64,000 bases of DNA from a virus, in IMG/VR virus record IMGVR_UViG_3300042090_002370, positions 32,001 through 96,000 of that record; one strand, written 5' to 3'. A program made the translations under genes and the position numbers. Shown here one piece after another: positions 12,790 through 59,839 of the stretch. Below the pieces are notes generated by a model. That model made no database searches, was not told the origin of the DNA, and worked only from the letters and a program-made list of their open reading frames with translations. Every line of letters starts with the position of its first letter. Position 1 is the first letter of the stretch.

Positions 12790-12831
12790 TAGCTAGGAAA
12801 AAGAGCGCCGGGGTTGCCTGCCCCTACGCTC
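12790..12831 (-). terminator. Terminator T1: hairpin + TTTTTCC + TAGCTA
   Basis: GAGCG/CGCTC and GGGG/CCCC stem, then a U-tract and TAGCTA on the minus strand, 12 nt after the stop of 12844..13584. Confidence 0.65.
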
Positions 12832-12843
12832 GATTACCTAAGA

Positions 12844-13584
12844 CTACGGAACGGTCGTAGTCCATGTGCCACCCCAAGCGCCTTCGCAGTTCGACTGGTC
12901 TTGGTCGAGCGTGAGCTGCCCACTTGCCGCAGTGCTCGGAAAGCATGCCTCCGTCGTCTCTCCGCCAAATGGGATCTTGCAGCATCCGCCGAGGTCTAGC
13001 CCCTGACAAGATGGCGCTGGAGCCGCGCAGCCTACCGTGCCGCCAGACACTCCATTGCATCCACAATCGGCCGCGTTCAAACCTACTGCGTAGTCACACG
13101 CGTCGACCTGATTCACCGTACCTGTCCCGGCAACATAGCTTCCTGAGAAAGCCGGCCCAGGTCCGTTAGGCGCTGCGGTAGGGGGCCACGTAGGCGTTTC
13201 GGCAAGAACAAAGTCGGTGGGGTCTAGTACTGTGACAACGTATCGACCGTTCGCTGCAGGTACACCTTGTACGCCGTTTACAGTAATGCTCTGACCGGTG
13301 ACCGCCCCTGATGCCGTGGCCGTTTTGATCTGAATAAGCCCACCAGTGTAGCTCTGCACATTGACCACACTTGTTAGCGGGTTCCCCCAGTAGACACATG
13401 CCTGCCCTACTGGTGGGGTGTTTCCATTCAATGCCTGCTCAGGCGGTAATGGTGGAAGCGGGGCATACGGCGGCACGACGACGTCGTCCCTGCCCTCAGC
13501 CACAGGCGGCAGTTCGGCCGTGCAGTTGGGCAGAAGAAGAAGAAGTGCGACAAGCGACGAATACAGCGAGAGTGCTCTTTTCAT
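12844..13584 (-). CDS. Secreted / putative lipoprotein, Cys-rich
   Basis: Likely start MKRALSLYSSLVALLLLLPNC (GGAGG RBS): basic N-terminus, hydrophobic core, Cys at position 21. Pro-rich linker and Cys-rich C-terminal domain. Confidence 0.65.
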   Translation of the reverse strand: MKRALSLYSSLVALLLLLPNCTAELPPVAEGRDDVVVPPYAPLPPLPPEQALNGNTPPVGQACVYWGNPLTSVVNVQSYTGGLIQIKTATASGAVTGQSITVNGVQGVPAANGRYVVTVLDPTDFVLAETPTWPPTAAPNGPGPAFSGSYVAGTGTVNQVDACDYAVGLNAADCGCNGVSGGTVGCAAPAPSCQGLDLGGCCKIPFGGETTEACFPSTAASGQLTLDQDQSNCEGAWGGTWTTTVP

Positions 13585-13603
13585 GATGGGTTCCTCCACT
13601 ACT

Positions 13604-13612
13604 CTTATCCCC
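13604..13612 (-). promoter_or_regulatory. Phage-specific promoter motif P1 (GGGGATAAG)
   Basis: One of 7 intergenic copies of SGGRATAAG; followed after 6 nt by GGAGG and then ATG 13584. Confidence 0.75.
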
Positions 13613-13675
13613 GAAATGTGCAAAAACTTGCCTGGATGTAGGTCGCTAGGCTCCTTCGTTTCTTCTAGCGTCACG

Positions 13676-13684
13676 TGGTAACCT
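13676..13684 (+). promoter_or_regulatory. Extended -10 promoter (TGgTAACCT), leaderless
   Basis: TGn-TAACCT lies 8 nt upstream of ATG 13693; no SD. Confidence 0.5.
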
Positions 13685-13692
13685 TCCAGGCT

Positions 13693-14121: not shown

Positions 14122-14130
14122 GGGAATAAG
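14122..14130 (+). promoter_or_regulatory. Phage-specific promoter motif P2 (GGGAATAAG)
   Basis: SGGRATAAG copy 34 nt upstream of the thyX ATG (14165). Confidence 0.75.
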
Positions 14131-15117: not shown

Positions 15118-15423
15118 ATGGCGGCGGAACCCTCTAAGGCGGAACAACCGGTTATTGGAGTACGTCCTGTAGTGCAGGACAAGGCCCTCAACGGGGCTGC
15201 AGCAGCCAAGCCGGACGCCTTCGCCCCTCTGCGGGAGTTTGTCGAGCAGATGGTGAAGGACGCACGTGAGGAGGGGCGCAAAGCTGGCGTGGTTGAAGGT
15301 CGTGTGTTGGGCTTGCGACGGGCCTGTACGCTACTAGGCATTGCGATGAGCAAGCTCTCAGTGGATGACAGGAACAAGCTCGCCGGCGCACTCGAGGACG
15401 TTGAGCACGAGCTCGTAAAGTAG
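15118..15423 (+). CDS. Hypothetical protein
   Basis: Strong GAGGAG RBS; 101 aa helical ORF between thyX and terminator T2. Confidence 0.7.
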   Translation: MAAEPSKAEQPVIGVRPVVQDKALNGAAAAKPDAFAPLREFVEQMVKDAREEGRKAGVVEGRVLGLRRACTLLGIAMSKLSVDDRNKLAGALEDVEHELVK

Positions 15424-15465
15424 AAGAGGTGGGCCCGCGAGGGCCGGGCCCCCTTCTTTTAGCTA
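15422..15465 (+). terminator. Terminator T2: hairpin + TTCTTT + TAGCTA
   Basis: GGGCCCG/CGGGCCC stem followed by CCTTCTTTTAGCTA. Confidence 0.8.
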
Positions 15466-15489
15466 CGTGTTGGATGCATACTGTTCTTC

Positions 15490-15876
15490 ATGCTGGCCGT
15501 CAGCACCAACACGCGCAACGTCGAGGTTATGGCCACGACGGCCAGTATGAATGGCGGGTATCTGCGCGTGTACGGAGCCCCACGGCCGCCTGCACCGGAG
15601 GTTGCCGTAACCTCTCAAGTGCTGTTCGTGGAGTTGCGTTTCGCCACTTCCGCATTCGCGCCTCCGGTAAATGGTGTAGCTCAGGTGACTACAATCCCAG
15701 CTGGGGCCATCCTCGCAAGCGGCATGCCTACATGGTTTCGGGCATTTGCCGAAGACGGGGTTACAGCTATCCTAGACGGTGACATTGGTGAGGACCTCGA
15801 TCTAAGTCAGTCTCGCATCATCTCCGGCGGCACCTTTTCCGTGGTCTCTCTCGTGTACTACATCCCCAACCCCTAA
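15490..15876 (+). CDS. Small virion structural protein
   Basis: LRVYG...P, SGMPTWFR...ILDGDIG pattern seen in phage tail-associated proteins; -10-like box immediately upstream. Confidence 0.55.
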   Translation: MLAVSTNTRNVEVMATTASMNGGYLRVYGAPRPPAPEVAVTSQVLFVELRFATSAFAPPVNGVAQVTTIPAGAILASGMPTWFRAFAEDGVTAILDGDIGEDLDLSQSRIISGGTFSVVSLVYYIPNP

Positions 15877-15910
15877 GCCACGTTCGGCGTTCCCAGACGC
15901 TGCCGCAACC

Positions 15911-15919
15911 TGATAGGCT
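15911..15919 (+). promoter_or_regulatory. Extended -10 promoter (TGaTAGGCT), leaderless
   Basis: TGn-TAGGCT lies 6 nt upstream of ATG 15926; no SD. Confidence 0.55.
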
Positions 15920-15925
15920 AAGCGC

Positions 15926-16231
15926 ATGCACCAGCTCCCTCTGACGTTAACGGTTCGTTCGGTGAGGGTCACTGACCAGGGCGTCGACTTTGCGTGCGTC
16001 GTAGAAGACGCCAAGGGCGAAAGCGTTCGCTTCGTTCCGATGACTACCGGCCCTGTTTCTGCTGCCGAGGCGTTCGCTATTCTGCAGGGGCATGCAGACA
16101 CGCTGGCAAAAGATCTTCTACGTCAAGGTAAGGCGCAGTTGGTTGAAGTCAGCCAGAGTGAAGAAGAGAGGGTCAAAGCTCTCGAGGCCATGGTTGGGCT
16201 TCATTTCGAAGGAAGCACGGTGCGCGTATGA
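15926..16231 (+). CDS. Hypothetical protein
   Basis: 101-aa ORF coupled (ATGA) to the next gene. Confidence 0.65.
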   Translation: MHQLPLTLTVRSVRVTDQGVDFACVVEDAKGESVRFVPMTTGPVSAAEAFAILQGHADTLAKDLLRQGKAQLVEVSQSEEERVKALEAMVGLHFEGSTVRV

Positions 16232-17289
16232 GCAATCAGCTTTTCGGTATCGCGAAGCAGCGCCTTGTCGACGCAGGCATGCCGCGGATCTACATCTCAC
16301 GCCGCGTTCTCGCTGAGCTCAACGACTTCGAGGAGTCCAGGGCGCGCAAGAAGTCGTTCGTGCGTAGGGAGCGTGAGTTTCGGGCCTGCGGCATGTCCGC
16401 TAGGTTGTTCGATACTGGGCGCAACGCTTTCAATACGAAGGCTATCTCGTGGACAGGTGATACGCAGAAGGCGCTCTTGCTCGACATGAGCGCTACTGGC
16501 ACCTACGTGAAGGTCATCTCAACGGTCTCCAACGCGAGCCCAGCGGTGTACACCACGACAGTGGCACACGGGTTCTCTACTGGCGACGTCGTTGTGGTAA
16601 CCGGCGTGCTGGGTAACCTGTCAACGAACCAGACTGGGCTTGTGACGAGCCCGAGCGGCTCCACGTTCTCCATGACGACCCTCGAGGGTCAGACCATCGC
16701 TGGGTCAGCTGCGTACACCTCTGGTGGGTACTGCATCGACCTGACGCAGGCACAGTTCGTTTCCGGTATTCTCGGCAACCGTGTCGGCACAGATCAGACT
16801 CTTGCGGGTACGACGAGCTCCAAGGGCGTCGCAAACGCAACCACGCCCATCACCTGGCCCACAGTTCCTTCTGGCAACCCTGCGCAGGCGGTTGTCTTCT
16901 ACGACGCAGCTGGCGGCTCAGACGCCACCAACCAGATCATCGGCTGGCAGGATGGGAAGATCCGCGTCATCACGGTCGGGGATACGCCGCTTTCATCGAC
17001 GTCCATGAAGGTACAGCCGCTTCGAGCTCAGCTCTGGGACGGGTCGACAGGCTCCGCGCCTGTGCTCTGGTTCTCCAACGGGTTCTCTGCCACGCTCAAC
17101 GCCGCTGCTGCACAGGGCGCAGACTCCCTCACCGTGACGTCAACCGGACACGACATCCCTGACCTTCAGACGGCAGACGTCATCGCATTTGGAGCGGGTC
17201 TACCCGTTACCCCGTCCGGCGGTAACATCGCGTTCAACATCGGTTCTATCTACGCTCCGCTCACGCCGACTGGAATCTACGAGTTGTAG
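16228..17289 (+). CDS. Virion structural protein (tail-associated)
   Basis: MSARLFDTGRNAF...ISWTGDTQKALLLD N-terminal family motif; AHGFSTGDVVVVTGV beta module. Alternative start at 16393. Confidence 0.6.
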   Translation: MSNQLFGIAKQRLVDAGMPRIYISRRVLAELNDFEESRARKKSFVRREREFRACGMSARLFDTGRNAFNTKAISWTGDTQKALLLDMSATGTYVKVISTVSNASPAVYTTTVAHGFSTGDVVVVTGVLGNLSTNQTGLVTSPSGSTFSMTTLEGQTIAGSAAYTSGGYCIDLTQAQFVSGILGNRVGTDQTLAGTTSSKGVANATTPITWPTVPSGNPAQAVVFYDAAGGSDATNQIIGWQDGKIRVITVGDTPLSSTSMKVQPLRAQLWDGSTGSAPVLWFSNGFSATLNAAAAQGADSLTVTSTGHDIPDLQTADVIAFGAGLPVTPSGGNIAFNIGSIYAPLTPTGIYEL

Positions 17290-17334
17290 AAGCGTGGCGC
17301 GTCGCTGGCGGCGTGCCAGGCTTAGTGACCGCCT

Positions 17335-19833
17335 ATGATCTTACTCGACAACACCTCGAGCGTACTCCAGATCGTCTCTGGCGGTCAGGCAGCACTGCAT
17401 GTGCAAGCCGACTGGGTAGACCTTCTCAGTAGTACGGTCACGCCTAGCGTTCCCCCGCAAAATACGCTCATCGCAGCTACGCCCGGAACGACGACAGTCG
17501 TCGGTTCTCCCGCCGCGACCTACTCGCGTTCGGTCGTGGGGCTGTCGATTACGAATACAAGCGCGTCGCTTGGTTGCACCGTTCAAGTGCAACACAACGA
17601 CGGGACGAATGTTGCGGACGTCACTCCGTCTGCAACGCTCCCAGCAAATTCAACACTGATCTACAACGGTCAGAGCTGGGATCTCGTCACGAGCAACTTT
17701 TTTCGCGGCGCGGTTGTAGAAGTCACGGATGGGCTCAACGGAAACGTTGGCGTAGCGCCGGCCAACACGGCGGGTGCGGTGGCTCAACCCGCGCTCGTCA
17801 CGACGCTCTCACCGAACTCCGCCCCCCAGCCCAACACGTCCCTATCGGGGACGCTGTCCTCGGTCACGGCGGGGCCAGCGATGTCCACGGCGGGGATGTC
17901 GTCGTTTTCGGTCGTCTTCGAGGCGGTCACGGCGGTCGCAACGATCACGATGCAGGAGTCGAGGGACGGTGGGACCACGTGGCAGACGGTCAAGCTGCAA
18001 CTGATTCCAAGCGGGCTGCCGGTCTCCGGAGTGGTTACGTGGTCCGGCGCAACGGTGATCCTGTTCTACGGGATCGCCGTCAACTCTGGCGTGGGTCTTC
18101 TGCGCGCGAATATGACCTCGTACACGAGCGGCGGTCCGGTCGTCTACACGATAGAGGGCTCGACCGTCGCCCCTCCGTTCCTCGCGAACACCGTAGGAGC
18201 GCCGGGGGCCGCGATTCCCCCCTCGGCGCTGCAAGTTGGGGGGAATGACGGGACGGACATTCGAGCGCTGTCGACGGACTCGTCCGGGCGCGTGAATGTT
18301 GTCGGCCCAGCCGCCGCCGGAGCCGTACCGGTTGGTAACCCGGTTCTTGCCGCAGGGTATGACGGCACGGATGTTCGGACGATCCTGACCGACACTTCCG
18401 GTCGCGTGATCGGGGAGATCACAGACGGAACCAACGGGATCGTAGGGGTAGCTCCTGCCAGCACGGCCCCAGTCGCGACTCAACCCGCGCTCGTGGTGGC
18501 TCTCTCACCGAACTCGCAGCCGTACACCGACTCGAGTCCTGCCACGCAAAACATCACTGCGCAGGACACCAACACAACTTCCACAACCGTCGCCAACGGA
18601 CAGACGTTTTTCACCGGTACGCCTACGGCTGGCTCTGCTGCGACGTTCACTCTTGCATCGCAAGAGACAGTCACTGTTCAGGTGACCGGAACTTGGACAG
18701 GCACCCTGCAAGCCGAGTCGTCGATGGACGGTGGGACCACGTACACGGTCCTGCCGATCCAGCAGGGTACCTACCAGAGCGCCTGGACTCAGAATTTCAA
18801 AGGCACGGGTAACGTCGGAGGCACGACGCAGTTCCGTATTCGAGCTACTGCGGCGTGGACGGGCACTGCGACTGTCAAGGTCGTCACCTCGAGTAATCCA
18901 TATGTCACGACAAACGTCGTAACTGATACGACCAACTCTGCGTCTCTCGCCGCGTTGAACGCGGCGGTGCAGGTTGCGACATCGGGTCAGAACAGCGTTG
19001 CGCTGGAGATCACCAACTCGACGTTCACTGGCACATTGATCGCGGAGGTCAGTGCAGACGGAACGACGTGGAACGCGGCGAAGACGTTCAGCATCGTCGG
19101 CACGCCGTTTCCGAACGGTGTCGCCTACGCGGCGAGCAGCGGGGCCGGGTTCCTGTCTATCCTCCTGTTGCCCGGTGTTGGGTTCGCCCGCATTCGATGC
19201 TCGGCGTACACGAGCGGGTCGTCCCTGGTCTCGATGCGCGCGTCCACGGCGGGCAAAGACCTTGTGCAGCTTGCACTAGGTACCATCGCTGCCGGAGCGC
19301 TCCCGACCAACGCGCTGATGGCGGGTCTCACGGACGGGACGGCGCTGCGCGGGATGCTGGGGGATACGAGCGGCCGCCCGAACGTCGTCGGCGCGGCGGC
19401 GGACGGTGCTGCGGTAGCGGGTAACCCCGTTCTCGTCGCTGGTCAGTTTCAGACCACGGCCGCTAACACGGTGAACACGCTAGTTACGGATCAGTACGGA
19501 GATCTGTTCGTCAGCCCGGGACTCAGTGAGGATATGACTGGGCTCAATAGACAGAGCCCTGACGTTCCCTCGCTTAGTAACACCAATGTCCCGAATTACG
19601 AGATCGCGCGCACAAAAGTCGCTGTTGGCCGCTTCCAGCAAGACCAAGGTGACGCGTCTTTCGACTACCCGCTTCCGGCCGAGTCGAGGAACGAGCGTCA
19701 GCGCTTGGAGCTGGCCTCGCTTGCGAATCAGGACCATGGGATTCTGTCCATAGCGTTCGGGGGACGCACAAGCTCACGGTTTCCGTCGTTGACATTCGGC
19801 CAACGCGGCTTTGGTGATAGAGGAGGAAGGTAA
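17335..19833 (+). CDS. Modular tail / fibre protein with internal repeats
   Basis: Three beta-sandwich modules (ESRDGGTTW, SSMDGGTTY, EVSADGTTW), two TDGxNGxVGVAPAxTA...QPALVxxLSPNS linkers and three DGTxxRxxxxDxSGR repeats. Confidence 0.6.
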   Translation: MILLDNTSSVLQIVSGGQAALHVQADWVDLLSSTVTPSVPPQNTLIAATPGTTTVVGSPAATYSRSVVGLSITNTSASLGCTVQVQHNDGTNVADVTPSATLPANSTLIYNGQSWDLVTSNFFRGAVVEVTDGLNGNVGVAPANTAGAVAQPALVTTLSPNSAPQPNTSLSGTLSSVTAGPAMSTAGMSSFSVVFEAVTAVATITMQESRDGGTTWQTVKLQLIPSGLPVSGVVTWSGATVILFYGIAVNSGVGLLRANMTSYTSGGPVVYTIEGSTVAPPFLANTVGAPGAAIPPSALQVGGNDGTDIRALSTDSSGRVNVVGPAAAGAVPVGNPVLAAGYDGTDVRTILTDTSGRVIGEITDGTNGIVGVAPASTAPVATQPALVVALSPNSQPYTDSSPATQNITAQDTNTTSTTVANGQTFFTGTPTAGSAATFTLASQETVTVQVTGTWTGTLQAESSMDGGTTYTVLPIQQGTYQSAWTQNFKGTGNVGGTTQFRIRATAAWTGTATVKVVTSSNPYVTTNVVTDTTNSASLAALNAAVQVATSGQNSVALEITNSTFTGTLIAEVSADGTTWNAAKTFSIVGTPFPNGVAYAASSGAGFLSILLLPGVGFARIRCSAYTSGSSLVSMRASTAGKDLVQLALGTIAAGALPTNALMAGLTDGTALRGMLGDTSGRPNVVGAAADGAAVAGNPVLVAGQFQTTAANTVNTLVTDQYGDLFVSPGLSEDMTGLNRQSPDVPSLSNTNVPNYEIARTKVAVGRFQQDQGDASFDYPLPAESRNERQRLELASLANQDHGILSIAFGGRTSSRFPSLTFGQRGFGDRGGR

Positions 19834-20489
19834 TGATCACAGAAGGCGTAGCAGGTAGGCGTGCACGACGGCAGCAGGGGAACGTGGTTTCCGCCTATAC
19901 GCAGTTGGGGAGCGTTCCCATCGCGTACATGGAGGGAGAGGGCGACGAAGGCACGCGTACAGGAATGCGGATGCAGTTGTCTGCCCTTGGCGCTACCGGG
20001 ATCGCGCCAGTGCAGGCGGTCCCGACAACCGCCGCACAGTGGCTGATCGTCAATCCAGCGGCGAATACGAAGTCCGCGTACATCGACGAGCTGGGGATGA
20101 TACTGGTGAGCGGTACGGGCGGCGCTAACGCAACCGTGCTCTGTGCTGTCCTGCCACCGGCGAATATGCCGGCTACGGTTCCGTCAGCCTCGGCTGCCAA
20201 TATCGTGATCACGAACAGGTCGACGTCCAGTGGAAACACCTCGAGGCTGATCGTGGCTTCCGCTCAAACGCTGGTCGGCGTGACGGCAGGTTGGTGGTAT
20301 CCGCTCGCGTGGGAAGACATCGCCAACACCCTGCTAGGGCAGACGCAGCTCGTTGACCGAGACATTCGCGGCAAGATCGAGATTGCACCTGGTGGGGGAG
20401 TCGCGTTGGCGGTCATCAGCCCAACAGGGACCACGCCTCTTTGGGGCCCTGTAGGAACCTGGCGCGAGTACGAGTCCGACAACGAGTAA
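19833..20489 (+). CDS. Hypothetical virion protein
   Basis: GAGGAGG RBS, coupled to the upstream stop; beta-rich. Confidence 0.6.
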   Translation: MITEGVAGRRARRQQGNVVSAYTQLGSVPIAYMEGEGDEGTRTGMRMQLSALGATGIAPVQAVPTTAAQWLIVNPAANTKSAYIDELGMILVSGTGGANATVLCAVLPPANMPATVPSASAANIVITNRSTSSGNTSRLIVASAQTLVGVTAGWWYPLAWEDIANTLLGQTQLVDRDIRGKIEIAPGGGVALAVISPTGTTPLWGPVGTWREYESDNE

Positions 20490-20513
20490 CCGCTTCCCCG
20501 GAGAGGGTGGGAC

Positions 20514-23404: not shown

Positions 23405-23615
23405 AGGGCGTGATGCAAAGGCAACGCAGACCCTGAATCCGCTTATGGGCTACGCGATGCCTGATATCGCCAGTCTTCGCGTTCACGGCCATCACCGGCC
23501 CGTCCACGGGGGGAAGATGAAGCACGACGTGGAATTGACGCCGGGTGCCGGGTGCCGGTGGTCGCGTGGCTCCAGGCGTAGACGCGAGTCCCGCTCTCTG
23601 CACTAAGAACCCGGG

Positions 23616-23647
23616 TAGCTAAAAAAGAGGGCCCGTTGGGGCCCCCT
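23616..23647 (-). terminator. Terminator T3: hairpin + U-tract + AGCTA (ends replication operon)
   Basis: GGGCCC/GGGCCC stem then TCTTTTTTAGCTA on the minus strand, immediately after the stop at 23650. Confidence 0.8.
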
Positions 23648-35097: not shown

Positions 35098-35106
35098 CTT
35101 ATTCCG
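35098..35106 (-). promoter_or_regulatory. Phage-specific promoter motif P3 (CGGAATAAG)
   Basis: SGGRATAAG copy 36 nt upstream of the helicase ATG; heads the 11.5 kb replication operon. Confidence 0.75.
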
Positions 35107-35134
35107 CCAACGCGAGACAATGTGCAGCCCCGCG

Positions 35135-35160
35135 GAGCTAAAAAAAGGCGGCGCAGGCCG
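35135..35160 (-). terminator. Terminator T4: short hairpin + TTTTTTT + AGCTC
   Basis: CGGC/GCCG stem, U7 tract, AGCT; embedded in a larger structured intergenic region. Confidence 0.65.
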
Positions 35161-35269
35161 GACCGTCAACATGGCTCCGTTTTCGAAGCCATGTCAACGT
35201 GCCGAAGCCCCTTTTTTCTCGTGTCTTGTGGTGGCCCACAGCCGTAGCCACTAGGGGTTGTGGACGAGC

Positions 35270-40147: not shown

Positions 40148-40156
40148 CTTATCCCG
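40148..40156 (-). promoter_or_regulatory. Phage-specific promoter motif P4 (CGGGATAAG)
   Basis: SGGRATAAG copy 36 nt upstream of ATG 40111. Confidence 0.75.
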
Positions 40157-41697: not shown

Positions 41698-41705
41698 GAG
41701 GCGGC

Positions 41706-42491: not shown

Positions 42492-43485
42492 GGCTACAAT
42501 CCACGCTTTCCGCGATGAGCTCCGTAAAGAGGCGACAACGCCGCTACTTGGGGCTCCGGGGCTGCTGCAACGGGCCAAACCAGTGTTACAGCGGGCAGGC
42601 GCACTCGGGGGCGTCGGTGCTCTCGGGGGGGCGGCTATTGGCGCTGGCCTAGGGGGTGCAAAGGGATACCGCGAGGCACGCGCAGAAGGGGCTGGAGTGG
42701 GCGGCGCAGCGTTACATGGGCTCCTCGGCGCCGGTGGCGGGGCTATACGCGGCGCCGGTTACGGCGCCCTGGCCGGAGCAGGTGCGGGCGCTTTTTCGAA
42801 GCTGGACACTAGCAAGCTCACTGCCGGTGAGGGCCTAATTCACAGCGCAGCCCGTTCTGGGCAGCGGCAGGTACACGCTCTCACAGGAATGCTAACGCCA
42901 GGTGAGCTTGAGGGGGTCCGCGGCGGTGCGTTTGACGCCAGGAAAGCGTTGGAGACCGCCAGGGGATTACCGCATGAAGCTAAAGCTCAAAAGGCCTTCA
43001 CGGCTGCTGACACGGCTCAGCACATGGGGCTTACCAGCGTTCCTGGCTATCTGAGAGCATTGAAAGACCGGCCAGTTAGTGAGGTTCTCGGTGCCAGCGC
43101 AAGGGAGCAGTATCACGGCATGCACCCTGCGCTGGGGGCGGTTATGGTTGGTCTGCCGGCCGCATCGGCAGTAGGTACACTTGCTAATAAGGAGAGCCCT
43201 ACCGGGCCAGGTAAGGGTGAGGAGCTCGGTCGTAATTTAGGTGGGGCTGTTGGTGGCGTAATGGGTGGGATGATGCCGGTGGGCGGCGCTGAGGTGATGA
43301 ATCGTCTGGGCACGGGCGCTGGCGCCGGCGTCGGCCGCGTCATCGATCGTATCCGTGGGCGCAAGCCTCTAGTCAATGACCTAGGCAACCCCAGCACGCT
43401 CGAACCTACCGAGTCGCAGAACACACCCAGTGAGCGCGTTACGAGCCCCTCAGCGGCAGGTGGGCAGAAAGATATAGGGCTGTGA
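42484..43485 (+). CDS. Gly/Ala-rich putative internal virion (ejection) protein
   Basis: N-terminal AFRDELRKEA motif; glycine-zipper hydrophobic segments. Confidence 0.55.
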   Translation: MLEATIHAFRDELRKEATTPLLGAPGLLQRAKPVLQRAGALGGVGALGGAAIGAGLGGAKGYREARAEGAGVGGAALHGLLGAGGGAIRGAGYGALAGAGAGAFSKLDTSKLTAGEGLIHSAARSGQRQVHALTGMLTPGELEGVRGGAFDARKALETARGLPHEAKAQKAFTAADTAQHMGLTSVPGYLRALKDRPVSEVLGASAREQYHGMHPALGAVMVGLPAASAVGTLANKESPTGPGKGEELGRNLGGAVGGVMGGMMPVGGAEVMNRLGTGAGAGVGRVIDRIRGRKPLVNDLGNPSTLEPTESQNTPSERVTSPSAAGGQKDIGL

Positions 43486-43486
43486 A

Positions 43487-46852: not shown

Positions 46853-46902
46853 CCGGCCGTCAGCCGCGAGCTGCTCGCCAGGCGGAGCGTAAGGCGAACA
46901 GG

Positions 46903-46934
46903 TAGCTAAAAAAAGGGGCGGCACTGCCGCCCCT
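46903..46934 (-). terminator. Terminator T5: hairpin + TTTTTTT + AGCTA
   Basis: AGGGGCGGCA/TGCCGCCCCT inverted repeat adjoining the stop of 46934..47155. Confidence 0.85.
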
Positions 46935-51154: not shown

Positions 51155-51163
51155 CTTATTCCC
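51155..51163 (-). promoter_or_regulatory. Phage-specific promoter motif P5 (GGGAATAAG)
   Basis: SGGRATAAG copy heading the MoxR/VWA unit. Confidence 0.75.
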
Positions 51164-51378: not shown

Positions 51379-51387
51379 CTTATCCCG
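51379..51387 (-). promoter_or_regulatory. Phage-specific promoter motif P6 (CGGGATAAG)
   Basis: SGGRATAAG copy 36 nt upstream of ATG 51342; divergent from the RNAP gene. Confidence 0.75.
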
Positions 51388-51435: not shown

Positions 51436-54400
51436 ATGATTGCAGCGGCCATGGCGTATTTGGACCCCAAGAAGGCGTTCGAACACCTGAAGGAACGCGT
51501 GCTCGAGGGCATACAGGACCAATTTGCCAAGAACCCCATTGTCGGGAAGAAGCAGTCGCTGCACCTTGAGGCGCTCGAAGTACGCGACAAGTTAGGTGAG
51601 GCAGACGACATCCGCGCACAGCACAAGGCAAAGGTGGAGAACGACACCTGGGCGGTGCCTATTTATGCCACACTGGCGCTCAAGGATAACGAGACCGGAA
51701 AGGCGTTAGACCGTCGAACTATCCGCATCGCGGAGATTCCGAAGACGACTAACAGGCACTCGTACATCATCGATGGGCAGGAGTATCAGGTCAACAACCA
51801 GTGGCAATTGCGGCACGGCATTTATGTAAAGCGCCGTGTGAACGGTGAGCTTGAGGCTGCGTGCAACGCGGGTCGCGGGTTCGATGTTGTGCTGGACCCG
51901 GCAACCAAAGTCTTTCGAATGGAGCACGGTAAGAGCCGCGGTAAGCTCCCCATCTACCCATTCCTCAAGACGCTTGGTGTGAGCGACGAAGATCTCATGA
52001 AGTCGTGGGGCAAGGAGATGTTCGAAGCGAATCAGAAGGCGCCGAAGTCGGACATTGCGCTCGAGAAATTCTACAAGGCGGATAAGCCGTGGGCAGGTAC
52101 TCCAACCAAGGAGGTCGCTGCCGAGCACTTCTACGACATGATGGAGAAGACGCATCTCCGTCCAGAGTCCACGCAACTCACGTTAGGGCGGCCCTTCACG
52201 CATGTATCCGGCGAGGCGCTGAAGCTCGCAACTGAGAAGATGCTCAAGGTACAGGCGGGGCACCCAGAGGATGACCGCGATTCACTGGTCTTCAAGGATC
52301 TACGTACCGCCGGTGACTTCGCCTATGACGCCATTCTACATCAGCGCAAGAATATTGAGACACGTGCCGGGCGACAGATCGACAAAGCAAAGGACGCCTA
52401 TGACGTCATGAAGTTCGACATGTTCAACAAGCCCATCAAGGGGGCGTTGTCCTCAGCGAACGCGGCGGCTATGCCGGCATCGCAGATCAATCCACTAGAG
52501 ATGGCGTCGTCTGCGATGCAGACTACTATCATGGGCGCAGGCGGTATTCGTACCGCGCAGCAGGTACAGCATGAAGCGAAGTTTGTGAATCCCAGCCATC
52601 TCGGTTTTCTTGATCCGCTCAACACACCGGAGGGTGAGAAAACAGGTGTCACATTGCGGCTGCCTATCGGTGTACGCAAGGTCGGGCACGAGGCGAAGAT
52701 TCCTCTCTACAACCTGCTCTCCAAAAAAACCGAGCTTGTCTCTCCAGGCGAGTTCATGGAGGCAAACATCGTCCTGCCAGATCAGGTGAAGTGGGAAGAT
52801 GGCGTACCGCATCCGCTGCACCATACAGTTCGCGCGAGCTCTAAGGGCAACGAGATTCGCGACGTGAAATTCGAGGATGCGCACTACGTTATGCGCAGCC
52901 CTTCTCAGCTTTTCAACATGACTTCGAACCTCATTCCATTCCTGGCGAACACGAGCGGTAACCGCGCGTCTATGGCGAGCAGGCATATGGAACAGGCGGT
53001 CTCGCTCTTGCATCGTGAGGCCCCACTTGTCCAGGTAGGTACAGGCTCCGACAAGGAAGGCATCGACACCTTCGAGAACATCATGGGCTACCAGGCGTCC
53101 CACGCTGCTTCGGAAGAAGGCAAAGTTGTAGCAGTGAACAGGGACGGCATTATCATTGAAGACCGCCTTGGTAAGAAGCACGAAGTTCAGCTCTACAACA
53201 ACTACCCGCTCAATGACGCCAAGAGTGTGATGCACTCTACACCCGTTGTCGCCGTCGGCGATCATGTGAAGAAGGGTCAGCTCATTGCAGACACGAACTT
53301 CTCCAAGAATGGGACGCTCGCTCTCGGCACGAACTTGCGCGTCGCGTACCTGCCCTTCAAAGGGTACAACTTCGAGGACGGTGTTGTCATTAGTGACAGC
53401 GCTGCCAAGAAGCTCTCGAGTGAGCATCTGCAGAAGCTGATGATGCCACTCGACCAGGAGACCATACTCGACAAGAAGCGCTTCCACATCTCCAACCCCG
53501 GGTTGATGACGAAGGAACAGTACGAGAAGATGGACTCGAACGGCATAGTGCGGGTGGGGCAGAAGGTCCAGCCAGGCGACCCGCTCGTTGCAGCGATGCG
53601 ACCGTACAAATTGAAGGACCGTACGGGTATGGCGGCTGTGCGCAAGGCCATGGGCGGTCGGCACGATGACCGCAGCATGCGGTGGGACAGCGACTTCGAG
53701 GGCGAGGTCGTAGGCGTACATCGCAGCGACAAAGGGCTGACCGTTCATGTTCGCACGGTCGAGCCTATGCAGGTCGGCGACAAGATCAGTAATCGTTATG
53801 GTGGGAAAGGTATCGTCACCAAGATTCTGCCCGACCCTGAGATGCCGCACACGAAGGACGGTAAGCATATAGAGGTAGCGCTAAACCCCAGCGGCATACC
53901 GGGGCGCATGAACGTGGGGCAGGTCTTCGAGACCTCCGTCGCCAAGATCGCCGAGAAGACCGGCAAGCCCTACATCGTGAAGAACTTCGACACGAACATG
54001 GACGTCATCGCCAAGGTCCAGGCTGACCTGAAGGCGCACGGGCTCTCGGACACCGAGGAGCTCAAGGATCCTGCGACTGGGCAGATCCTTGGGCAGGTGA
54101 CGGTGGGGCCGCAGCACATCTTCAAACTCGTTCACCAGATCGACAAGAAGCTTGCAGTGCGCAGCGGCAGTGGGACCCTGCCTGGGGCAGCGGCGGAGCA
54201 TTACGACTTGAATCTGCAGCCCATGGGTGGCAAGAGCACTGGCGGGCAGTCGATGGGCACGCTGGGGCTCTTCGCGCTCCTGGCGCACGGCGCCAAAGCA
54301 AACATCCGGGAGATGCAGACATACAAGTCGGAGGGCCCGGACCCGCAGACCGACCCGGCGAAGAGGTGGCCGAGCGACCACCACCGGATCTGGGCAGCCA

Positions 54401-57400
54401 TTCAGACTGGGCACCCACTACCGACGCCCAAGCCGACTTTTGCTTACCGCAAGTTCGAAGACATGCTACGCGGGAGTGGCATCAACATCGAGAAGAAGGG
54501 GCATGACCTTATCCTCTCGCCAATGACGGACCAACACATACGAGCGCTGGCGAAGAACGCACTGCCGCACCCTGCGGACATGCTGAACTCGAAGATGGAC
54601 AAGAACGGAGACCCTAAGCCTAAGGCCGGTGGGCTCTGGGATGAGAAGCTTACTGGTGGGTTGGGCGGTCGTCAGTGGACGCGAATCGAGCTATCTGAAC
54701 CGCTGCCAAACCCCATCTTCGAGAAGCCTATCAAGGCACTGACCGGGCTCTCTCCAAAAGACTTTAATGCTGTTCTGCATGGAAGTAAGGGCGTCACGGC
54801 GAATGGCAACATCACGGAGGCCGGCGCCGGCGTAACTGGCGGAGCGGGCATCAAGGTTTTGCTAGACCGCGTCAACGTTGCGCGCGATCTCGCCAAGGCC
54901 GAGGCTCAGCTGAAGATCGTCAAGGGGCAGAGCGTCGACCGTGTACTGAAGAAGGTAAAGTACTTGCGGGCGCTCAAGCAGATTGGGGTGACCCCAAGCG
55001 AGGCGTACATCCTTCACAACATCCCTGTCATGCCGCCCATCATGCGACCGGTATCGAAACTGCCGGATGGGTCACCTAAGTTCGACGATATCAACCAGCT
55101 CTATTCCGACTTCGCGAAGATCAACGATAAGTTGAAGGACCCCATCTTGGTGAGGAATCTCACTGACGAGGGGAAGTCGGATCTCCGCAAGGACTTCTAC
55201 GACGGCGCCAAGATGTTCATGGGCATGGGGCTCCAGTACGGAGATGCCAAGCACAAGGGGCTACTGCACCAGATTGCCGGCAGCTCACCGAAACACGGCT
55301 ACTTCCAGGACAAGCTCATCGCCCGCAAGCAGGATCTGACGATGCGCTCGACCATCGTCCCCGAGCCAGGTCTCGATTTGGATGAGGTGGGTCTGCCGAA
55401 GCACGCCGCGCTCGAGCTTTTCAAGCCCTTTGTCGTTCGCCAGCTCAAGCAGATGGGCGCCATACAGAACGAGGTGCAGGGCGCGGCCTTTGTAGAGAAG
55501 AAGAGCCCACAGGTCTGGCGTGCGCTCGATCGTGTGATGGCGGAGCGACCTATTCTCCTAAAGCGAGACCCTGCGCTGCACAAGTACAATGTGCAAGCCT
55601 TCCGTGCACGGCCTATTGAGGGCGACGCTGTGCGCATACACCCGCTCGTGACGGGCGGATACAACGCCGATTTCGACGGCGACACGATGAGTGCCTTCGT
55701 GCCCATCACGCACGATGCGGTGAACGAGGCCGTACGGATGTTCCCCTCTCATAACCTCTTCAGCGAGGCGACTGGCCGGCTTATGTACCAGCCGACGCTC
55801 GAGAGCGCCCTCGGACTCTACAAGCTGTCGGTAGTTGGTAAGGACTCCGGGCAGAAGTTTGAGCACGCTGGCCTGGCACTTGACGCCGTGCGTTCGGGGA
55901 AGCTTGGGTATACCGATGTCGTACACATCGGTGGCAAGAAAACCACGCCGGGGCGCATTCTGCTCTCCAGCGCGGTTCCGGAGGCTATGCAGAGCGAGAT
56001 GCTGCATGATCTTCACTATCGAATCGACGGTAAGTCAGCGGGCCTGAGCGCGCTTCTGACAGGCATTGCTAAGCATTACGGCCCGCAGTATGGAGAGGTC
56101 GTCAACAAGCTGAAGGATCTCGGCAACACTACGACATTCGGAGCAGCAGCGGTTCCGCGGGCTACTAGCGCTGGGCACGCGATGTCTTTTAGCACGTTGG
56201 GTAAGAACCCAGTCGCAACACTCAATAAGAAGATGGATGTCTTCATCCCAGTTGGGGCGCACACACTCTCGCTTAAGGACTTCGAGCCGGACAAGGCGTC
56301 GAGGGACCACGTGCTGTCAGCAGCTCACAAGGTCGTAGAGAAATACGCCGACGACCCGAAAATGACTAAGGACGAGAGGGATCGCAGAACCATTGCCGTA
56401 TACGAACACGCCGCCGACGAGATGAAGGCCCTACATGAAAAGAAGGAAGAGAAAGACCCAAGCAACCTCTACACAATGTACAAGGCTGGCGTGAAGCCTG
56501 GCTGGGACCAGTACAAACAGATGGTTCTAGCACCCATGATTTACAAGGATTCCGCTGATCGGAAGATTCCGATACCTGTGACCAAGAGCTACGCAGAGGG
56601 GCTAGACGTAGGCAGCTACTGGACTCAGATGCACGGCGCCCGACGCGGTTCGGTCATGAAGGTGCAAGAGGTCAGCGGTCCAGGCTATCTATCCAAGTTG
56701 CTCATGAACAACATGATGCACATTCTTGTGAACTCTCCTGATTGCGGGACGAGCAAGGGCATCGTCCTGGACGCCAATGAGGCAGATATTCATGATCGAT
56801 ACCTGCAGCAGGAGTTCACACACGGCAAGGTTACTTTTCCTGCGGGTACGCTACTCACCCCAAGCGTTGTCGGGAAGATCCGAGCGGCGAAGAAGGACGC
56901 CAAGCTGCTTGTACGAAGCCCGCTGAAATGCGAGGACCCGAAAGGGATTTGCCAGATGTGCTCAGGGCTTGGCTCGAGTGGTCAGCACTACGACCTGGGG
57001 CACAATCTCGGCGTGCAGTCTGCACAAGCCGTTGGTGAACGCGGCATCCAGTTAGCGCTCAAGAGCTTTCATACAGGTGGCGTAGGCGAACACAAGGGCG
57101 GCTCGAAGCTGCTCAACTCCTTCGAGCGCTTCAAGCAGCTTATGTACTTGCCTGAGAAAGTTCAGGACGAGTCCTCCCTAGCGATGAAGACTGGGAAGGT
57201 TGAACAGATCGTGCCTACGTCAACAGGAGTTGACATCTTCATCGGCGGGCAGAAGCACCATGTGGGCCGCGATACGAAGGGCATGCCGCTGCATCAGCCG
57301 CTGCCAGGCGCAGAGGCGGTAGAGGGCTATGTCCACTGGAAGGTTCCGGTGGTCGGGCAGCACCTCAAGGCAGGGGACACGCTCTCCGACCCCAACCGTA

Positions 57401-57915
57401 CGCTGCTCAACCCCCATCATCTCTATGCGGCGACAGGCTCCATTGAGGAGGTACAGAATCACCTCACGAATGAGATCTACGGGCTCTACCAGAAGGAAGG
57501 CATCAAGCGTCGAGCCATTGAAACGGTCGTGCGCGCGATGAGTAACCTAACCAAGGTCAATGACCCTGGCGAGCATCCCGATGTCCTCCGCGGTGAGTTC
57601 TACCCGCTGGCACAGGTGCAGCATATGAACCAAGAGCTGCTGCGCAACAAGAAGCGGCCTATCGAACACGAGCCGGTGATGAAAGGCATCAGCGCTATGC
57701 CTCATGCCCTCATTGAGGATTGGATGGCGAAGTTGCAGCATGAACATCTGCGAACGACGCTCACTGAGGCCGCGGCGATGGGCGGCATTTCCCACCTCCA
57801 TTCTACTCACCCGATTCCAGCCATTGCTTTCGGCGCCGAATTCGGGCTTACTTCCAAGGACGCGCTAAAGCCAGGGCATGAACACTTACGTGATGTGCCG
57901 GCGCATTACTACTAG
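51436..57915 (+). CDS. rpoBC: Single-chain DNA-directed RNA polymerase: fused beta-beta' subunits
   Basis: Beta motifs: YIIDGQE, NTPEGEKTG, LIPFL...NRASM, GYNFED, GDKISNRYGGKG, NPSGIPGRMNVGQ, GGQSMG. Beta' motifs: PVMPPIMRP, LELFKPF, catalytic NADFDGD (55663-55683), bridge helix HGARRG, trigger loop LKSFHTGG. No stop between the two halves. Start at 51436 or 51451. Confidence 0.96.
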   Translation: MIAAAMAYLDPKKAFEHLKERVLEGIQDQFAKNPIVGKKQSLHLEALEVRDKLGEADDIRAQHKAKVENDTWAVPIYATLALKDNETGKALDRRTIRIAEIPKTTNRHSYIIDGQEYQVNNQWQLRHGIYVKRRVNGELEAACNAGRGFDVVLDPATKVFRMEHGKSRGKLPIYPFLKTLGVSDEDLMKSWGKEMFEANQKAPKSDIALEKFYKADKPWAGTPTKEVAAEHFYDMMEKTHLRPESTQLTLGRPFTHVSGEALKLATEKMLKVQAGHPEDDRDSLVFKDLRTAGDFAYDAILHQRKNIETRAGRQIDKAKDAYDVMKFDMFNKPIKGALSSANAAAMPASQINPLEMASSAMQTTIMGAGGIRTAQQVQHEAKFVNPSHLGFLDPLNTPEGEKTGVTLRLPIGVRKVGHEAKIPLYNLLSKKTELVSPGEFMEANIVLPDQVKWEDGVPHPLHHTVRASSKGNEIRDVKFEDAHYVMRSPSQLFNMTSNLIPFLANTSGNRASMASRHMEQAVSLLHREAPLVQVGTGSDKEGIDTFENIMGYQASHAASEEGKVVAVNRDGIIIEDRLGKKHEVQLYNNYPLNDAKSVMHSTPVVAVGDHVKKGQLIADTNFSKNGTLALGTNLRVAYLPFKGYNFEDGVVISDSAAKKLSSEHLQKLMMPLDQETILDKKRFHISNPGLMTKEQYEKMDSNGIVRVGQKVQPGDPLVAAMRPYKLKDRTGMAAVRKAMGGRHDDRSMRWDSDFEGEVVGVHRSDKGLTVHVRTVEPMQVGDKISNRYGGKGIVTKILPDPEMPHTKDGKHIEVALNPSGIPGRMNVGQVFETSVAKIAEKTGKPYIVKNFDTNMDVIAKVQADLKAHGLSDTEELKDPATGQILGQVTVGPQHIFKLVHQIDKKLAVRSGSGTLPGAAAEHYDLNLQPMGGKSTGGQSMGTLGLFALLAHGAKANIREMQTYKSEGPDPQTDPAKRWPSDHHRIWAAIQTGHPLPTPKPTFAYRKFEDMLRGSGINIEKKGHDLILSPMTDQHIRALAKNALPHPADMLNSKMDKNGDPKPKAGGLWDEKLTGGLGGRQWTRIELSEPLPNPIFEKPIKALTGLSPKDFNAVLHGSKGVTANGNITEAGAGVTGGAGIKVLLDRVNVARDLAKAEAQLKIVKGQSVDRVLKKVKYLRALKQIGVTPSEAYILHNIPVMPPIMRPVSKLPDGSPKFDDINQLYSDFAKINDKLKDPILVRNLTDEGKSDLRKDFYDGAKMFMGMGLQYGDAKHKGLLHQIAGSSPKHGYFQDKLIARKQDLTMRSTIVPEPGLDLDEVGLPKHAALELFKPFVVRQLKQMGAIQNEVQGAAFVEKKSPQVWRALDRVMAERPILLKRDPALHKYNVQAFRARPIEGDAVRIHPLVTGGYNADFDGDTMSAFVPITHDAVNEAVRMFPSHNLFSEATGRLMYQPTLESALGLYKLSVVGKDSGQKFEHAGLALDAVRSGKLGYTDVVHIGGKKTTPGRILLSSAVPEAMQSEMLHDLHYRIDGKSAGLSALLTGIAKHYGPQYGEVVNKLKDLGNTTTFGAAAVPRATSAGHAMSFSTLGKNPVATLNKKMDVFIPVGAHTLSLKDFEPDKASRDHVLSAAHKVVEKYADDPKMTKDERDRRTIAVYEHAADEMKALHEKKEEKDPSNLYTMYKAGVKPGWDQYKQMVLAPMIYKDSADRKIPIPVTKSYAEGLDVGSYWTQMHGARRGSVMKVQEVSGPGYLSKLLMNNMMHILVNSPDCGTSKGIVLDANEADIHDRYLQQEFTHGKVTFPAGTLLTPSVVGKIRAAKKDAKLLVRSPLKCEDPKGICQMCSGLGSSGQHYDLGHNLGVQSAQAVGERGIQLALKSFHTGGVGEHKGGSKLLNSFERFKQLMYLPEKVQDESSLAMKTGKVEQIVPTSTGVDIFIGGQKHHVGRDTKGMPLHQPLPGAEAVEGYVHWKVPVVGQHLKAGDTLSDPNRTLLNPHHLYAATGSIEEVQNHLTNEIYGLYQKEGIKRRAIETVVRAMSNLTKVNDPGEHPDVLRGEFYPLAQVQHMNQELLRNKKRPIEHEPVMKGISAMPHALIEDWMAKLQHEHLRTTLTEAAAMGGISHLHSTHPIPAIAFGAEFGLTSKDALKPGHEHLRDVPAHYY

Positions 57916-57920
57916 GAGCC

Positions 57921-59195
57921 ATGCTGAATTGGGCATCGAAATTTCGCACGTCGATGACGAGCGTGGCTGGTCATGGGCCGGCTAAGATTTGCCAAGGGCG
58001 CATCGTCAACATCAATCTGCTCAAGTGGACGGTCGATGTTATCGCGCAATTCGACAGGAAGCGTTACTTCAACATCCAGGTGAGCTCGCCATATCTGCAC
58101 CATGCCAGCGGCGAGGGCATCTACGTCATGCCTGAGGTCAATGCGACCGTCATGGTCTGCATCCCCTCGGACAGCACGGCGCCCTTCGTTCTAGGTTTCA
58201 TTATGCCGACTGAGACCGTCGACTCCTCTACGGACGACGCGCCTCTCGGTACGACGCAGCACGCTCAGGCACCGGCGAACGCGACTGACTCCTCCTATGC
58301 CGCCGGACGCACAGCGAATCCTGGTGACATCGTTATGCGCTCGAGGGACAACAACTTTGTCATTCTGCATCGAGGGGGCGTGCTCCAGGTGGGTGCGACT
58401 CCGCTCGCGCAGCGCCTCTATATCCCTCTGCAGAATCTCGTGATGGACATCAGCGAGAACTATGAGCACCAGAATTCTGGTGGTGCCATCAAGTGGGGTA
58501 TACAGGAAGGCCCTTCGCAGACGACGCACCCCACGCAGTTCGTCCAAACCTTCCGTGTCTTTGCCGAGAATCAGTACGCGGACGTGCGCGTGACGTGCGG
58601 CGACATCACCGGACCATACGGGGACCCAGACGGCGGTGTTGCCGCTGCTGCGGATGGCTTGGGGCAGAAGAACAACACGGCTACAGCTAGCAACTGCGTT
58701 CTCTTCGAGATCGCCGTTACACCGCAAGGCTTCAACGTCAGCACTGGCGTGCCCAACGATGTTCCGGTTTCAGCGTCTACCTTCCGCTTCGCCTACGACA
58801 GAACTGGCAACGTTTTTTTACGTAATGCCGGCAACTTCTCCCAGCAAACGCAGGGTAAATACACGCTTTCGGTAGTCGGTGACCTCAGCGTTTCTTCGCA
58901 GGGTGTCGTGGAGCTCACATCACCCAAGAGCGTCAAGATCAACGGCGGAAAAGAGACGGACATTATAGGGACTGTCGTACGGCTGAATGCTGGGAAGAAC
59001 GCCGTGGCCTCTAAGGGCGACATGGTGCGTATCGATGTCGCAACCACTACGCCATTACAGGTCGGGCCGACTCCTATCCCGGTTGTCGGCTCTCCAACCG
59101 GCCCGTGGAGCATCGCTCCTGGAACACCCATCATCTTGACTGGCACGCTCTGGGGTTCGATTGTTGTCTGCCAAAACAGTTCGGTGCTGACGTGA
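57921..59195 (+). CDS. Baseplate central spike (gp5/gpV-like OB fold + beta repeats)
   Basis: AGGAG RBS; GRIVNI...VMPEVNATVMV...FVLG OB-fold pattern; PGDIVM; C-terminal beta-strand repeats and VASKGD. Confidence 0.6.
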   Translation: MLNWASKFRTSMTSVAGHGPAKICQGRIVNINLLKWTVDVIAQFDRKRYFNIQVSSPYLHHASGEGIYVMPEVNATVMVCIPSDSTAPFVLGFIMPTETVDSSTDDAPLGTTQHAQAPANATDSSYAAGRTANPGDIVMRSRDNNFVILHRGGVLQVGATPLAQRLYIPLQNLVMDISENYEHQNSGGAIKWGIQEGPSQTTHPTQFVQTFRVFAENQYADVRVTCGDITGPYGDPDGGVAAAADGLGQKNNTATASNCVLFEIAVTPQGFNVSTGVPNDVPVSASTFRFAYDRTGNVFLRNAGNFSQQTQGKYTLSVVGDLSVSSQGVVELTSPKSVKINGGKETDIIGTVVRLNAGKNAVASKGDMVRIDVATTTPLQVGPTPIPVVGSPTGPWSIAPGTPIILTGTLWGSIVVCQNSSVLT

Positions 59196-59809
59196 CCGTA
59201 CAGTTCGTAGAAGAGCTCTCGCTCGGTGAGCTGATGCCGGGGATTGTTCTTCTCATCCCACCACTGCTTGCCGGCTTCGATCTTGTTCTCACTGGGCCGT
59301 TCGGTCTTGGGACACTGCTAGCGGATGTCTCGGTGCAGCTCGCGGCGTCGATCTCAATTCAGGTGCAGATAGGGCTGCAGATATCGAACCCCTTTGCCGC
59401 TATTGAGGCGCAGCTTGCAGCGTTAGTACAAATTCAAGCGACGCTAGAGGCCTCGCTTTCTCTGGGGCTGCCTTCAGTAGCTGTTGGCTTCTCGGCATCC
59501 TTGAGCGCTAATGCTGCCATTGCGGCGTCCCTTGGCGCTCAGATTGGTGGTATTCAAGCGCTCATTCAAGCCTCCTTGGCATTGAAGATTCCAATCGTTT
59601 CCCTACTGGCTGCGCTGGAGGTCGGTCCAGCGGACCTCTTCACGGTCGGCTTCGATACGCCGGACAACATCAATGACATCGGTGCAGGTATACTCTCAGC
59701 TCGGCTGTCGCCCGGTTGCACGCTTGCGGACACCCCCGTCTACGGCGTCATCTTGCTCACCAACGGCGCTGCGGTACAGGCCAGCATGGGCCTCATCTTC
59801 AATCCGTAG
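59192..59809 (+). CDS. Hydrophobic Ala/Leu-rich virion protein
   Basis: GTG start overlapping the upstream stop (GTGA). Confidence 0.6.
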   Translation: MTVQFVEELSLGELMPGIVLLIPPLLAGFDLVLTGPFGLGTLLADVSVQLAASISIQVQIGLQISNPFAAIEAQLAALVQIQATLEASLSLGLPSVAVGFSASLSANAAIAASLGAQIGGIQALIQASLALKIPIVSLLAALEVGPADLFTVGFDTPDNINDIGAGILSARLSPGCTLADTPVYGVILLTNGAAVQASMGLIFNP

Positions 59810-59839
59810 CTAAAAAGAAGCGGGTTGTGCCCGCTTCTT
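59807..59839 (-). terminator. Terminator T6: hairpin + U-tract + AGCTA
   Basis: AAGAAGCGGG/CCCGCTTCTT inverted repeat; minus strand ends CTTCTTTTTAGCTA. Confidence 0.85.

Follow-up and report, generated by a model that had tools for sequence, protein, structure and literature searches.

Organization of the locus

The stretch of DNA analysed here (the window, 64,000 nucleotides) corresponds to bases 32001–96000 of IMG/VR record IMGVR_UViG_3300042090_002370, a single viral contig of 163,859 bp (58.8% GC) from an uncultured wetland phage. It holds six intergenic sites at which a GC-rich hairpin is followed by a T-rich pyrimidine tract and then by a fixed sequence, (T)AGCT(A/C)C. These terminators, five on the minus strand and one on the plus strand, are designated T1 to T6 (Table 1). 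The fixed sequence is called the box, and its positions are counted from the A (+1), the last letter of the pyrimidine tract being −1. The completeness of the contig, as given by a CheckV-type estimate, is 88%. A wetland metagenome contains the stretch as a single, nearly identical contig and may be where it comes from.

The window encodes a fused β-β' RNA polymerase, a single chain of 2159 amino acids (51436–57915), of which the β part can be aligned to bacterial β over residues 41–967. A family-A DNA polymerase and a helicase are encoded on the same contig. A megablast search with 20 kb of the window gave no match in 50,697 phage records, and the nearest fused polymerases found among GenBank phages in a protein search were distant (at most ∼30% identity). 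No Rfam family and no tRNA were found in the window. The RNA data consist of one metatranscriptome run in which the phage is present at low depth, as contigs of 200–400 nt from which starts, ends and strand cannot be read.

Terminators with unrelated stems and a common tail

All six sites form stable stem-loops, with folding energies of −18.8 to −44.1 kcal/mol that are well below those of shuffled sequences (z −2.8 to −5.5). A sequence-only reading of the window had proposed six terminators with unrelated stems and the same tail, five of them containing the palindrome TAGCTA. All six are real and lie where they had been placed, except that position 15422 (T2) marks the start of the hairpin and not the motif. 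The octamer TTTTAGCT is found five times in the window against 0.76 expected, and none of 100 shuffles reached five. TAGCTA itself is present in about the expected number (five copies), yet each of the five is at one of these terminators. No other strong terminator of the hairpin plus T-run type was found in the window.

Table 1. Terminators of the window and the promoter-like motifs of the units that they close. Positions are those of the window; energies are in kcal/mol and z is relative to shuffled sequences.
Feature	Position	Strand	Parts	Energy	z	Context
T1	12789..12831	−	hairpin 12831-12803, five T 12802-12798, CC spacer, TAGCTAC 12795-12789	−22.3	−2.8	between convergent genes 9594-12788 (+) and 12844-∼13575 (−)
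T2	15421..15466	+	hairpin 15421-15460 including TTCTTTT, T-run 15457-15460, AGCTAC 15461-15466	−26.4		between co-directional genes 15118-15423 and 15490-15876
T3	23615..23647	−	hairpin 23647-23626, six T 23626-23621, AGCTAC 23620-23615	−18.8	−3.6	end of long minus-strand replication-gene unit; convergent with gene 20514-23366 (+)
T4	35134..35220	−	compound hairpin 35220-35147, seven T 35146-35140, AGCTCC 35139-35134	−44.1	−5.5	followed by the GGAATAAG promoter-like motif at 35105-35098
T5	46902..46933	−	hairpin 46933-46915, seven T 46914-46908, AGCTAC 46907-46902	−20.7	−4.6	convergent with gene 43487-46852 (+)
T6	59806..59853	−	hairpins 59853-59840 and 59839-59815, five T 59816-59812, AGCTAC 59811-59806	−24.5	−3.6	plus-strand TAG 59807-59809 is the stop codon of convergent gene 59192-59809
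Promoter-like motif	13604..13611	−	GGGATAAG			would start the unit closed by T1; assigned by position (ribosome-binding site and ATG 20-30 nt downstream)
Promoter-like motif	14123..14130	+	GGAATAAG			would start the unit closed by T2
Promoter-like motif	35098..35105	−	GGAATAAG			would start the unit closed by T3
Promoter-like motif	40148..40155	−	GGGATAAG			would start the unit closed by T4
Promoter-like motif	51379..51386	−	GGGATAAG			putative first promoter of the T5 unit; divergent from the RNA polymerase gene
Promoter-like motif	51155..51162	−	GGAATAAG			putative second of the two promoters of the T5 unit
Promoter-like motif	60103..60110	−	GGGATAAG			would start the ∼290-nt unit closed by T6

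For the whole genome, terminators were picked without reference to the tail, as intergenic T-runs of at least four with a hairpin of −12 kcal/mol or lower ending within 3 nt (14 sites). Looser hairpin scans were discarded, as in GC-rich sequence they are dominated by false positives from coding regions. At 12 of the 14 sites the run is followed by zero to four pyrimidines and then AGC, compared with 9 of 270 T-runs of at least four inside genes (Fisher p = 5.5e-14). The remaining two comprise one site followed by AGT and one that is the reverse reading of T4.

An alignment of 19 sites was made from this unbiased set together with six sites that have interrupted T-tracts; the pattern used to find those six causes part of the invariance. 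T at −1, A at +1, G at +2 and C at +6 were present in 19 of 19 sites, C at +3 in 18, T at +4 in 16 and A at +5 in 14, with weak preferences up to +10. The 13 sites that had been picked independently of the box show the same letters, and +6 is always C. Positions −7 to −1 are 63–100% T (the rest is mostly C), with T-runs 4–7 long. A hairpin is present at 18 of the 19 sites, and the stems have no sequence in common. All eight TTTTAGCT octamers of the genome are intergenic; seven are behind terminator hairpins and one (contig position 20729) has no hairpin. Thus the fixed tail that had been described as an invariant AGCT holds up, but the invariant core is shorter (AGC preceded by the T of the tract) and the motif as a whole is longer (TAGCTAC, with C at +6). 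Other terminators of the genome that might lack the tail, named in the sequence-only reading as the place where it could fail, were also checked, and 17–19 of about 21 have it.

T4 (35147–35220, minus strand) is far larger than the other terminators: a perfect inner stem of 16 bp lies inside an outer stem of A7 and U7, and its length is sufficient for a target of a double-strand RNase. The hairpin-less run of seven T with AGCTAC at contig position 20729 ends a stretch of 687 nt (contig 20059–20745) without a convincing open reading frame (ORF).

Position and orientation of the box

The position of the box relative to genes was taken from a self-trained gene map after correction. Of the 19 sites, five are in convergent gaps and 13 in gaps between co-directional genes; the last, with AGT, belongs to the side of a bidirectional hairpin that is not used. 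The box was absent from all nine divergent gaps, and its orientation is always that of the transcription of the upstream gene. Occurrence in convergent and co-directional gaps and absence from divergent ones is the geometry of a terminator and not of a promoter. In three convergent cases the TAG or TAA in the reverse complement of the box (GTAGCTAA) serves as the stop codon of the opposing gene: at T6 (59807–59809), at contig position ∼142027 (box at 142031) and at positions 5577–5579 of a locus from a related phage (L004, see below). At these places the terminator and the end of the coding sequence therefore overlap.

At 13 of 18 sites the AGC starts 5–9 nt past the final G:C pair of the stem, near the point at which RNA is released in intrinsic terminators of the E. 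coli type.

Several other roles for the sequence were considered and rejected. Antisense mini-ORFs of the form ATG-NNN-AGC-TAG are found at 6 of the 19 sites, but in several of these the CAT/ATG is part of the start or stop codon of a neighbouring gene. Pairing of the box with the 5' flank of the hairpin would require an upstream GTAGC, which is present at two sites only. Primase, nick and restriction sites do not fit a box whose strand follows the direction of the genes and which is joined directly to the U-tract.

Upstream motifs of the terminated units

A second motif, GG(G/A/T)ATAAG(A/G), is present in the contig in 18 intergenic copies, which are located 20–40 nt before start codons and always on the strand of the downstream gene. 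It was found in all divergent gaps examined and is not sigma-70-like. From this placement, GG(G/A/T)ATAAG is probably a private promoter of the non-structural units. All six terminators of the window close units begun by the motif, and genome-wide 16 of 18 terminators have it upstream on the same strand (in one case as the variant GGCATAAG). A new unit can begin right behind a terminator, the promoter motif then being 9 to ∼40 nt after the box. Because this distinct motif comes after the box, and at a variable distance, the box itself is not the promoter.

One metatranscriptome contig (59859–60084) lies within the ∼290-nt unit between the motif at 60110 and T6, and stops before the hairpins. 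It is the deepest contig in the 20 kb examined (depth 11.4). Its position agrees with the unit model and gives a weak hint in its favor, although such a contig cannot show ends. The unit itself (59846–60110, minus strand) is tiny; it consists of the motif, one or two ORFs of 15–45 codons and the double-hairpin T6, and is placed between plus-strand operons.

The long plus-strand operons of the window (1–12788, 15490–23366, 40195–46852 and 51436–59809) have neither GG(G/A/T)ATAAG nor a terminator in their own orientation. They encode large virion-like proteins or belong to the polymerase operon, and run into the A-tract side of the minus-strand terminators.

A further intergenic motif, (G)GTAC(G/C)CT, was found on the plus strand at 60148–60156 and 62176–62183 of the window and at contig positions 30196, 119358 and 155367. 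It is located 8–18 nt before start codons and, three times, directly behind an AGC terminator; the arrangement AGCT...GGTAC is seen at contig positions 119346 and 30189. Nine of its 38 copies are intergenic, against an intergenic share of 8% of the DNA. It may represent another class of promoter or a signal for translation. In addition, a minus-strand element outside the window, at contig 143140–143215 (111140–111215 in window numbering), has the promoter-like variant GGCATAAGAG, followed by ∼110 nt without an ORF and then by a hairpin and TTTTTAGCTAC; it lies directly behind another AGC terminator, one without a T-run (contig 143295). Judged by this layout, it is a candidate small non-coding RNA.

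Conservation among related phages

Searches with the polymerase yielded six IMG/VR loci and 11 loci from JGI or GenBank metagenomes (one of them a duplicate contig), with 50–73% identity. One of the relatives, G001, is a complete genome of 194 kb whose polymerase is 62% identical. It contains four exact copies of TTTTAGCTAC and five copies with one mismatch, versus 0–1 for a control pattern. Nine of its sites read T[TC][TC]TAGCTAC, most of them behind GC hairpins of unrelated sequence, and at two sites the tail is followed by GGAATAAGG or GGGATAAGA; the putative private promoter motif is thus also present after terminators of this relative. In the 20-kb loci of the other relatives the counts of GG(G/A/T)ATAAG are too small for testing.

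By a search for TTTTAGC and a strict hairpin scan, at least eight distinct genomes among the relatives were seen to have a hairpin, a T-tract and AGC in succession. Their tails are AGCTAC, AGCCTC, AGCTCC, AGCCGC, AGCTGC, AGCTAT, AGCCCC, AGCCAC and AGCATC. Among strict terminators with runs of at least four T in the loci of the relatives, 10 of 14 are followed by AGC; a scan for runs of four T in L001–L006 misses the short, interrupted T-tracts of these phages. In L004, two back-to-back hairpins are located between convergent genes for proteins of 681 (plus strand) and 186 (minus strand) amino acids, with TTTTAGC reading each way, and the box of one terminator overlaps the stop codon of the opposing gene. 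Overall, the clade-wide core is TAGC(Y)N(C), in which the first T is the end of the tract, and each genome has its own preferred version. Its orientation, the gap geometry, the separate promoters and its retention in at least eight relatives with unrelated hairpins support the sequence-only reading in treating the tail as part of the terminator, and show that selection maintains it.

Proposed role of the box and its alternatives

In this phage and its relatives, the stop signal probably includes the fixed sequence as an orientation-dependent element. We propose a signal of three parts: a GC-rich hairpin of arbitrary sequence, which would often be lengthened by pairing of the upstream A-rich flank with the U-tract; a tract of 5–9 pyrimidines, mostly U and always ending in U; and the box A+1 G+2 C+3 Y+4 N+5 C+6 (AGCTAC in this phage). 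The box would start about where bacterial-type polymerases release RNA. With the enzyme filled by the weak U:A hybrid, it would then lie in the incoming-nucleotide (active) site and the downstream fork, and there it would probably strengthen pausing or release by being read directly by the polymerase. The most likely reader is the enzyme that starts at GG(G/A/T)ATAAG, presumably the fused β-β' polymerase of the phage, since the box is paired with the putative private promoter and both appear to be conserved in the clade with fused polymerases. A clade-wide core of only 3–4 nt at a fixed place also suits a signal close to the polymerase better than a separate DNA-binding protein. The anatomy of the sites, their statistics and gap geometry, the pairing with the private promoter motifs and the conservation in a phage clade are observed; from these we infer that RNA ends lie at the box sites, that the box raises the efficiency of termination and that it is read directly by a polymerase, which would be the phage enzyme. 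Taken as a whole, the reading of the box as a lineage-specific downstream element of intrinsic terminators, acting in cis on the transcribing polymerase and probably on the phage's own β-β' enzyme, has about an even chance of being right.

A number of observations weigh against this reading. Pairing of the A-tract with the U-tract would bring the stem to within 0–5 nt of the AGC in most sites, and with the stem extended in this way, release could lie beyond the box. The box is absent at two terminator-like sites (contig ∼123826, minus strand, and ∼107400, plus strand). The run of seven T with AGCTAC at contig position 20729 has no adjacent hairpin, lies 17 nt before a gene and is the sole box without a stem. 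Genes show no avoidance of hairpin-less T-runs with AGC on their sense strand, which holds 7 of 8 such coding sites (the polymerase gene contains one of the seven), from which it follows that a short T-run and the box do not suffice by themselves. The letters preferred at +4 to +6 do not track the similarity of the polymerases: the most similar IMG/VR relative (67%) favors AGCCTC and one at 62% shares AGCTAC, which leaves room for a co-evolving factor. No AGC rule was seen in Vibrio phage D69 (fused polymerase 30% identical, 45% GC), where ∼12 terminator-like sites in 50 kb are followed by AGC once, by AGT once and by AGG once. No sigma region 2 was detected in the genome, which bears on the question of which polymerase reads the units, and the RNA evidence is a single metatranscriptome contig.

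If the box is not read by the polymerase itself, it might be the binding site of a phage protein that serves as a termination factor, as a roadblock or as an on/off switch for terminators. Bound just past the U-tract, such a protein would halt or release the polymerase in the manner of Reb1/TTF-I for Pol I, of mTERF in mitochondria or of the repressor at the stoperators of mycobacteriophage L5. The geometry is equally compatible with such a site, TAGCTA is a 6-bp palindrome in this phage, and genome-specific letters at +4 to +6 (AGCTAC, AGCCTC, AGCTAT) that do not track the polymerase are what a co-evolving factor would produce. However, a DNA-binding protein would have very little to recognise in the clade-wide invariant TAGC(Y), the palindrome does not accommodate the conserved C at +6, and terminators that nearly all carry the box could hardly be regulated selectively. 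No DNA-binding regulator was detected when 18 proteins of the window were scanned against Pfam, most of the proteins having no family. We therefore regard a protein site as unlikely. It is improbable that the box acts in the RNA, by marking a place of cleavage or 3'-end maturation or by tagging read-through transcripts, with a nuclease or a pairing RNA as the reader. At nine co-directional sites the next start codon is 8–70 nt on with no recognised promoter between, so read-through transcripts with the hairpin, the U-tract and AGCUAC must exist; the downstream element of histone pre-mRNA, which is recognised by a pairing RNA, would be an analogue. Yet at the five convergent sites there is no downstream message in need of processing, the stems other than that of T4 are too short for RNase III, and transcription itself accounts better for a box that strictly adjoins the last U. 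Neither an Rfam family in the window nor a box-complementary RNA stood out, the latter in intergenic sequence read by eye.

The two remaining explanations deny the box a part in termination. A promoter, start site or re-initiation point for the next gene, made up of the T-tract and AGCTAC, would account for the seven co-directional sites at which the next start codon is 8–29 nt past the box, for the hairpin-less copy 17 nt before a gene and for the GGTAC(G/C)CT motif behind the box at three sites. It is barely credible, given that none of the nine divergent gaps has a box, that firing at the five convergent sites would be antisense into the 3' end of a gene, that the boxes of L004 point into the ends of two convergent genes and that a different, well-supported promoter motif follows the box at a variable distance. 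Highly improbable, too, is a box without any transcriptional role of its own, be it a provider of stop codons on both strands, a signature copied from host terminators or the result of shared descent of the flanks. The stop codon of an opposing gene does lie inside the box in three convergent cases (T6, contig position 142031 and L004), and the box could reflect the terminators of the host; to our knowledge, though, no bacterial group has a fixed triplet after the U-tract. Moreover, 13 co-directional sites have no opposing gene, stop codons do not explain C+3, Y+4 and C+6, and the box persists at 50–73% polymerase identity. Common descent of whole terminators is excluded because the stems are unrelated.

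Relation to known termination signals

The sites resemble canonical intrinsic terminators in their GC-rich hairpin, the U-rich tract immediately behind it and their placement at gene ends; some have an A-tract and some are bidirectional. They differ in that TAGC(Y)N(C) is nearly invariant in the genome and conserved in the clade. As far as we know, canonical terminators have no fixed sequence past the U-tract, and downstream DNA modulates their efficiency but not via a conserved motif. Short fixed sequences at the stop or pause point that are read by the polymerase itself are familiar from two other signals. The class II signal of T7 RNA polymerase, ATCTGTT, is upstream of a U-run and does not need a hairpin; no box of this type was found in the 19 aligned sites, where the conserved letters come after the U-run and a hairpin is present. 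The bacterial consensus elemental pause has G−10, Y−1 and G+1, with a core recognition element at G+2. The box may be likened to it in the pyrimidine at −1, the purine at +1 and the G at +2, but +1 is A here and not G.

Elongation is also stopped by short, oriented intergenic sites in the case of Reb1/TTF-I of Pol I (with a T-rich release element just upstream), mitochondrial mTERF and the stoperators of phage L5. Those sites are 11–14 bp or longer and need a known protein, whereas the core here is 3–6 nt and is joined to a full intrinsic terminator. The closest parallel in phages with multisubunit polymerases of their own is that of phiKZ and 201phi2-1, whose terminators are described as sharing motifs genome-wide and between genera (PMC11512511, citing Putzeys 2024). 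According to that description, the main motif of the phiKZ type forms a stem-loop lengthened by a second motif, and the conservation appears to include the stem (PMC11512511). Compared on the basis of the description, the present sites would differ in having unrelated stems and a fixed sequence only in the tail past the U-tract. The lineage of the polymerase differs as well, as the phiKZ-type enzymes consist of split subunits and the enzyme encoded here is a fused single β-β' chain. A paper on RNA polymerase-encoding Caudovirales does not mention promoters or terminators (PMC7481178).

Other features of the contig

The 1121-residue protein encoded opposite T5 (43487–46852, plus strand) contains a LAGLIDADG homing-endonuclease domain (residues 613–683) and no other Pfam family; an intein may be present inside it. 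Short GC-rich tandem repeats are found at both ends of the contig, of the AGTGCGGCGG type on the left (1–45) and of the GGTCGCGGTCGTGGTCGCGGTCGGG type on the right (163770–163859).

Implications

The box is thus a genuine and conserved extension of the intrinsic terminator, of which no published description was found. Its invariance at the release point across 50–73% polymerase identity implies sequence-specific recognition in termination, by the polymerase or by a partner. On the strength of the sequence comparisons, we tentatively suggest, and at somewhat less than even confidence, that a deep uncultured clade of phages with a fused β-β' polymerase uses a private transcription code, with a GG(G/A/T)ATAAG start and a stop made of hairpin, U-tract and AGC(Y)N(C), with sequence-specific recognition of the box by the phage polymerase or by a partner dedicated to it. 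If true, a sequence-specific component would be obligatory in termination by a multisubunit polymerase of the bacterial type, and this component could keep phage and host transcription apart or let terminators be switched. If the box is specific for the polymerase, it would also be a source of orthogonal parts for terminators and promoters. Taken together, private signals for start and stop would give a ready map of transcription units for uncultured phages, and hence an aid to the annotation of this widespread group of wetland, soil and freshwater.

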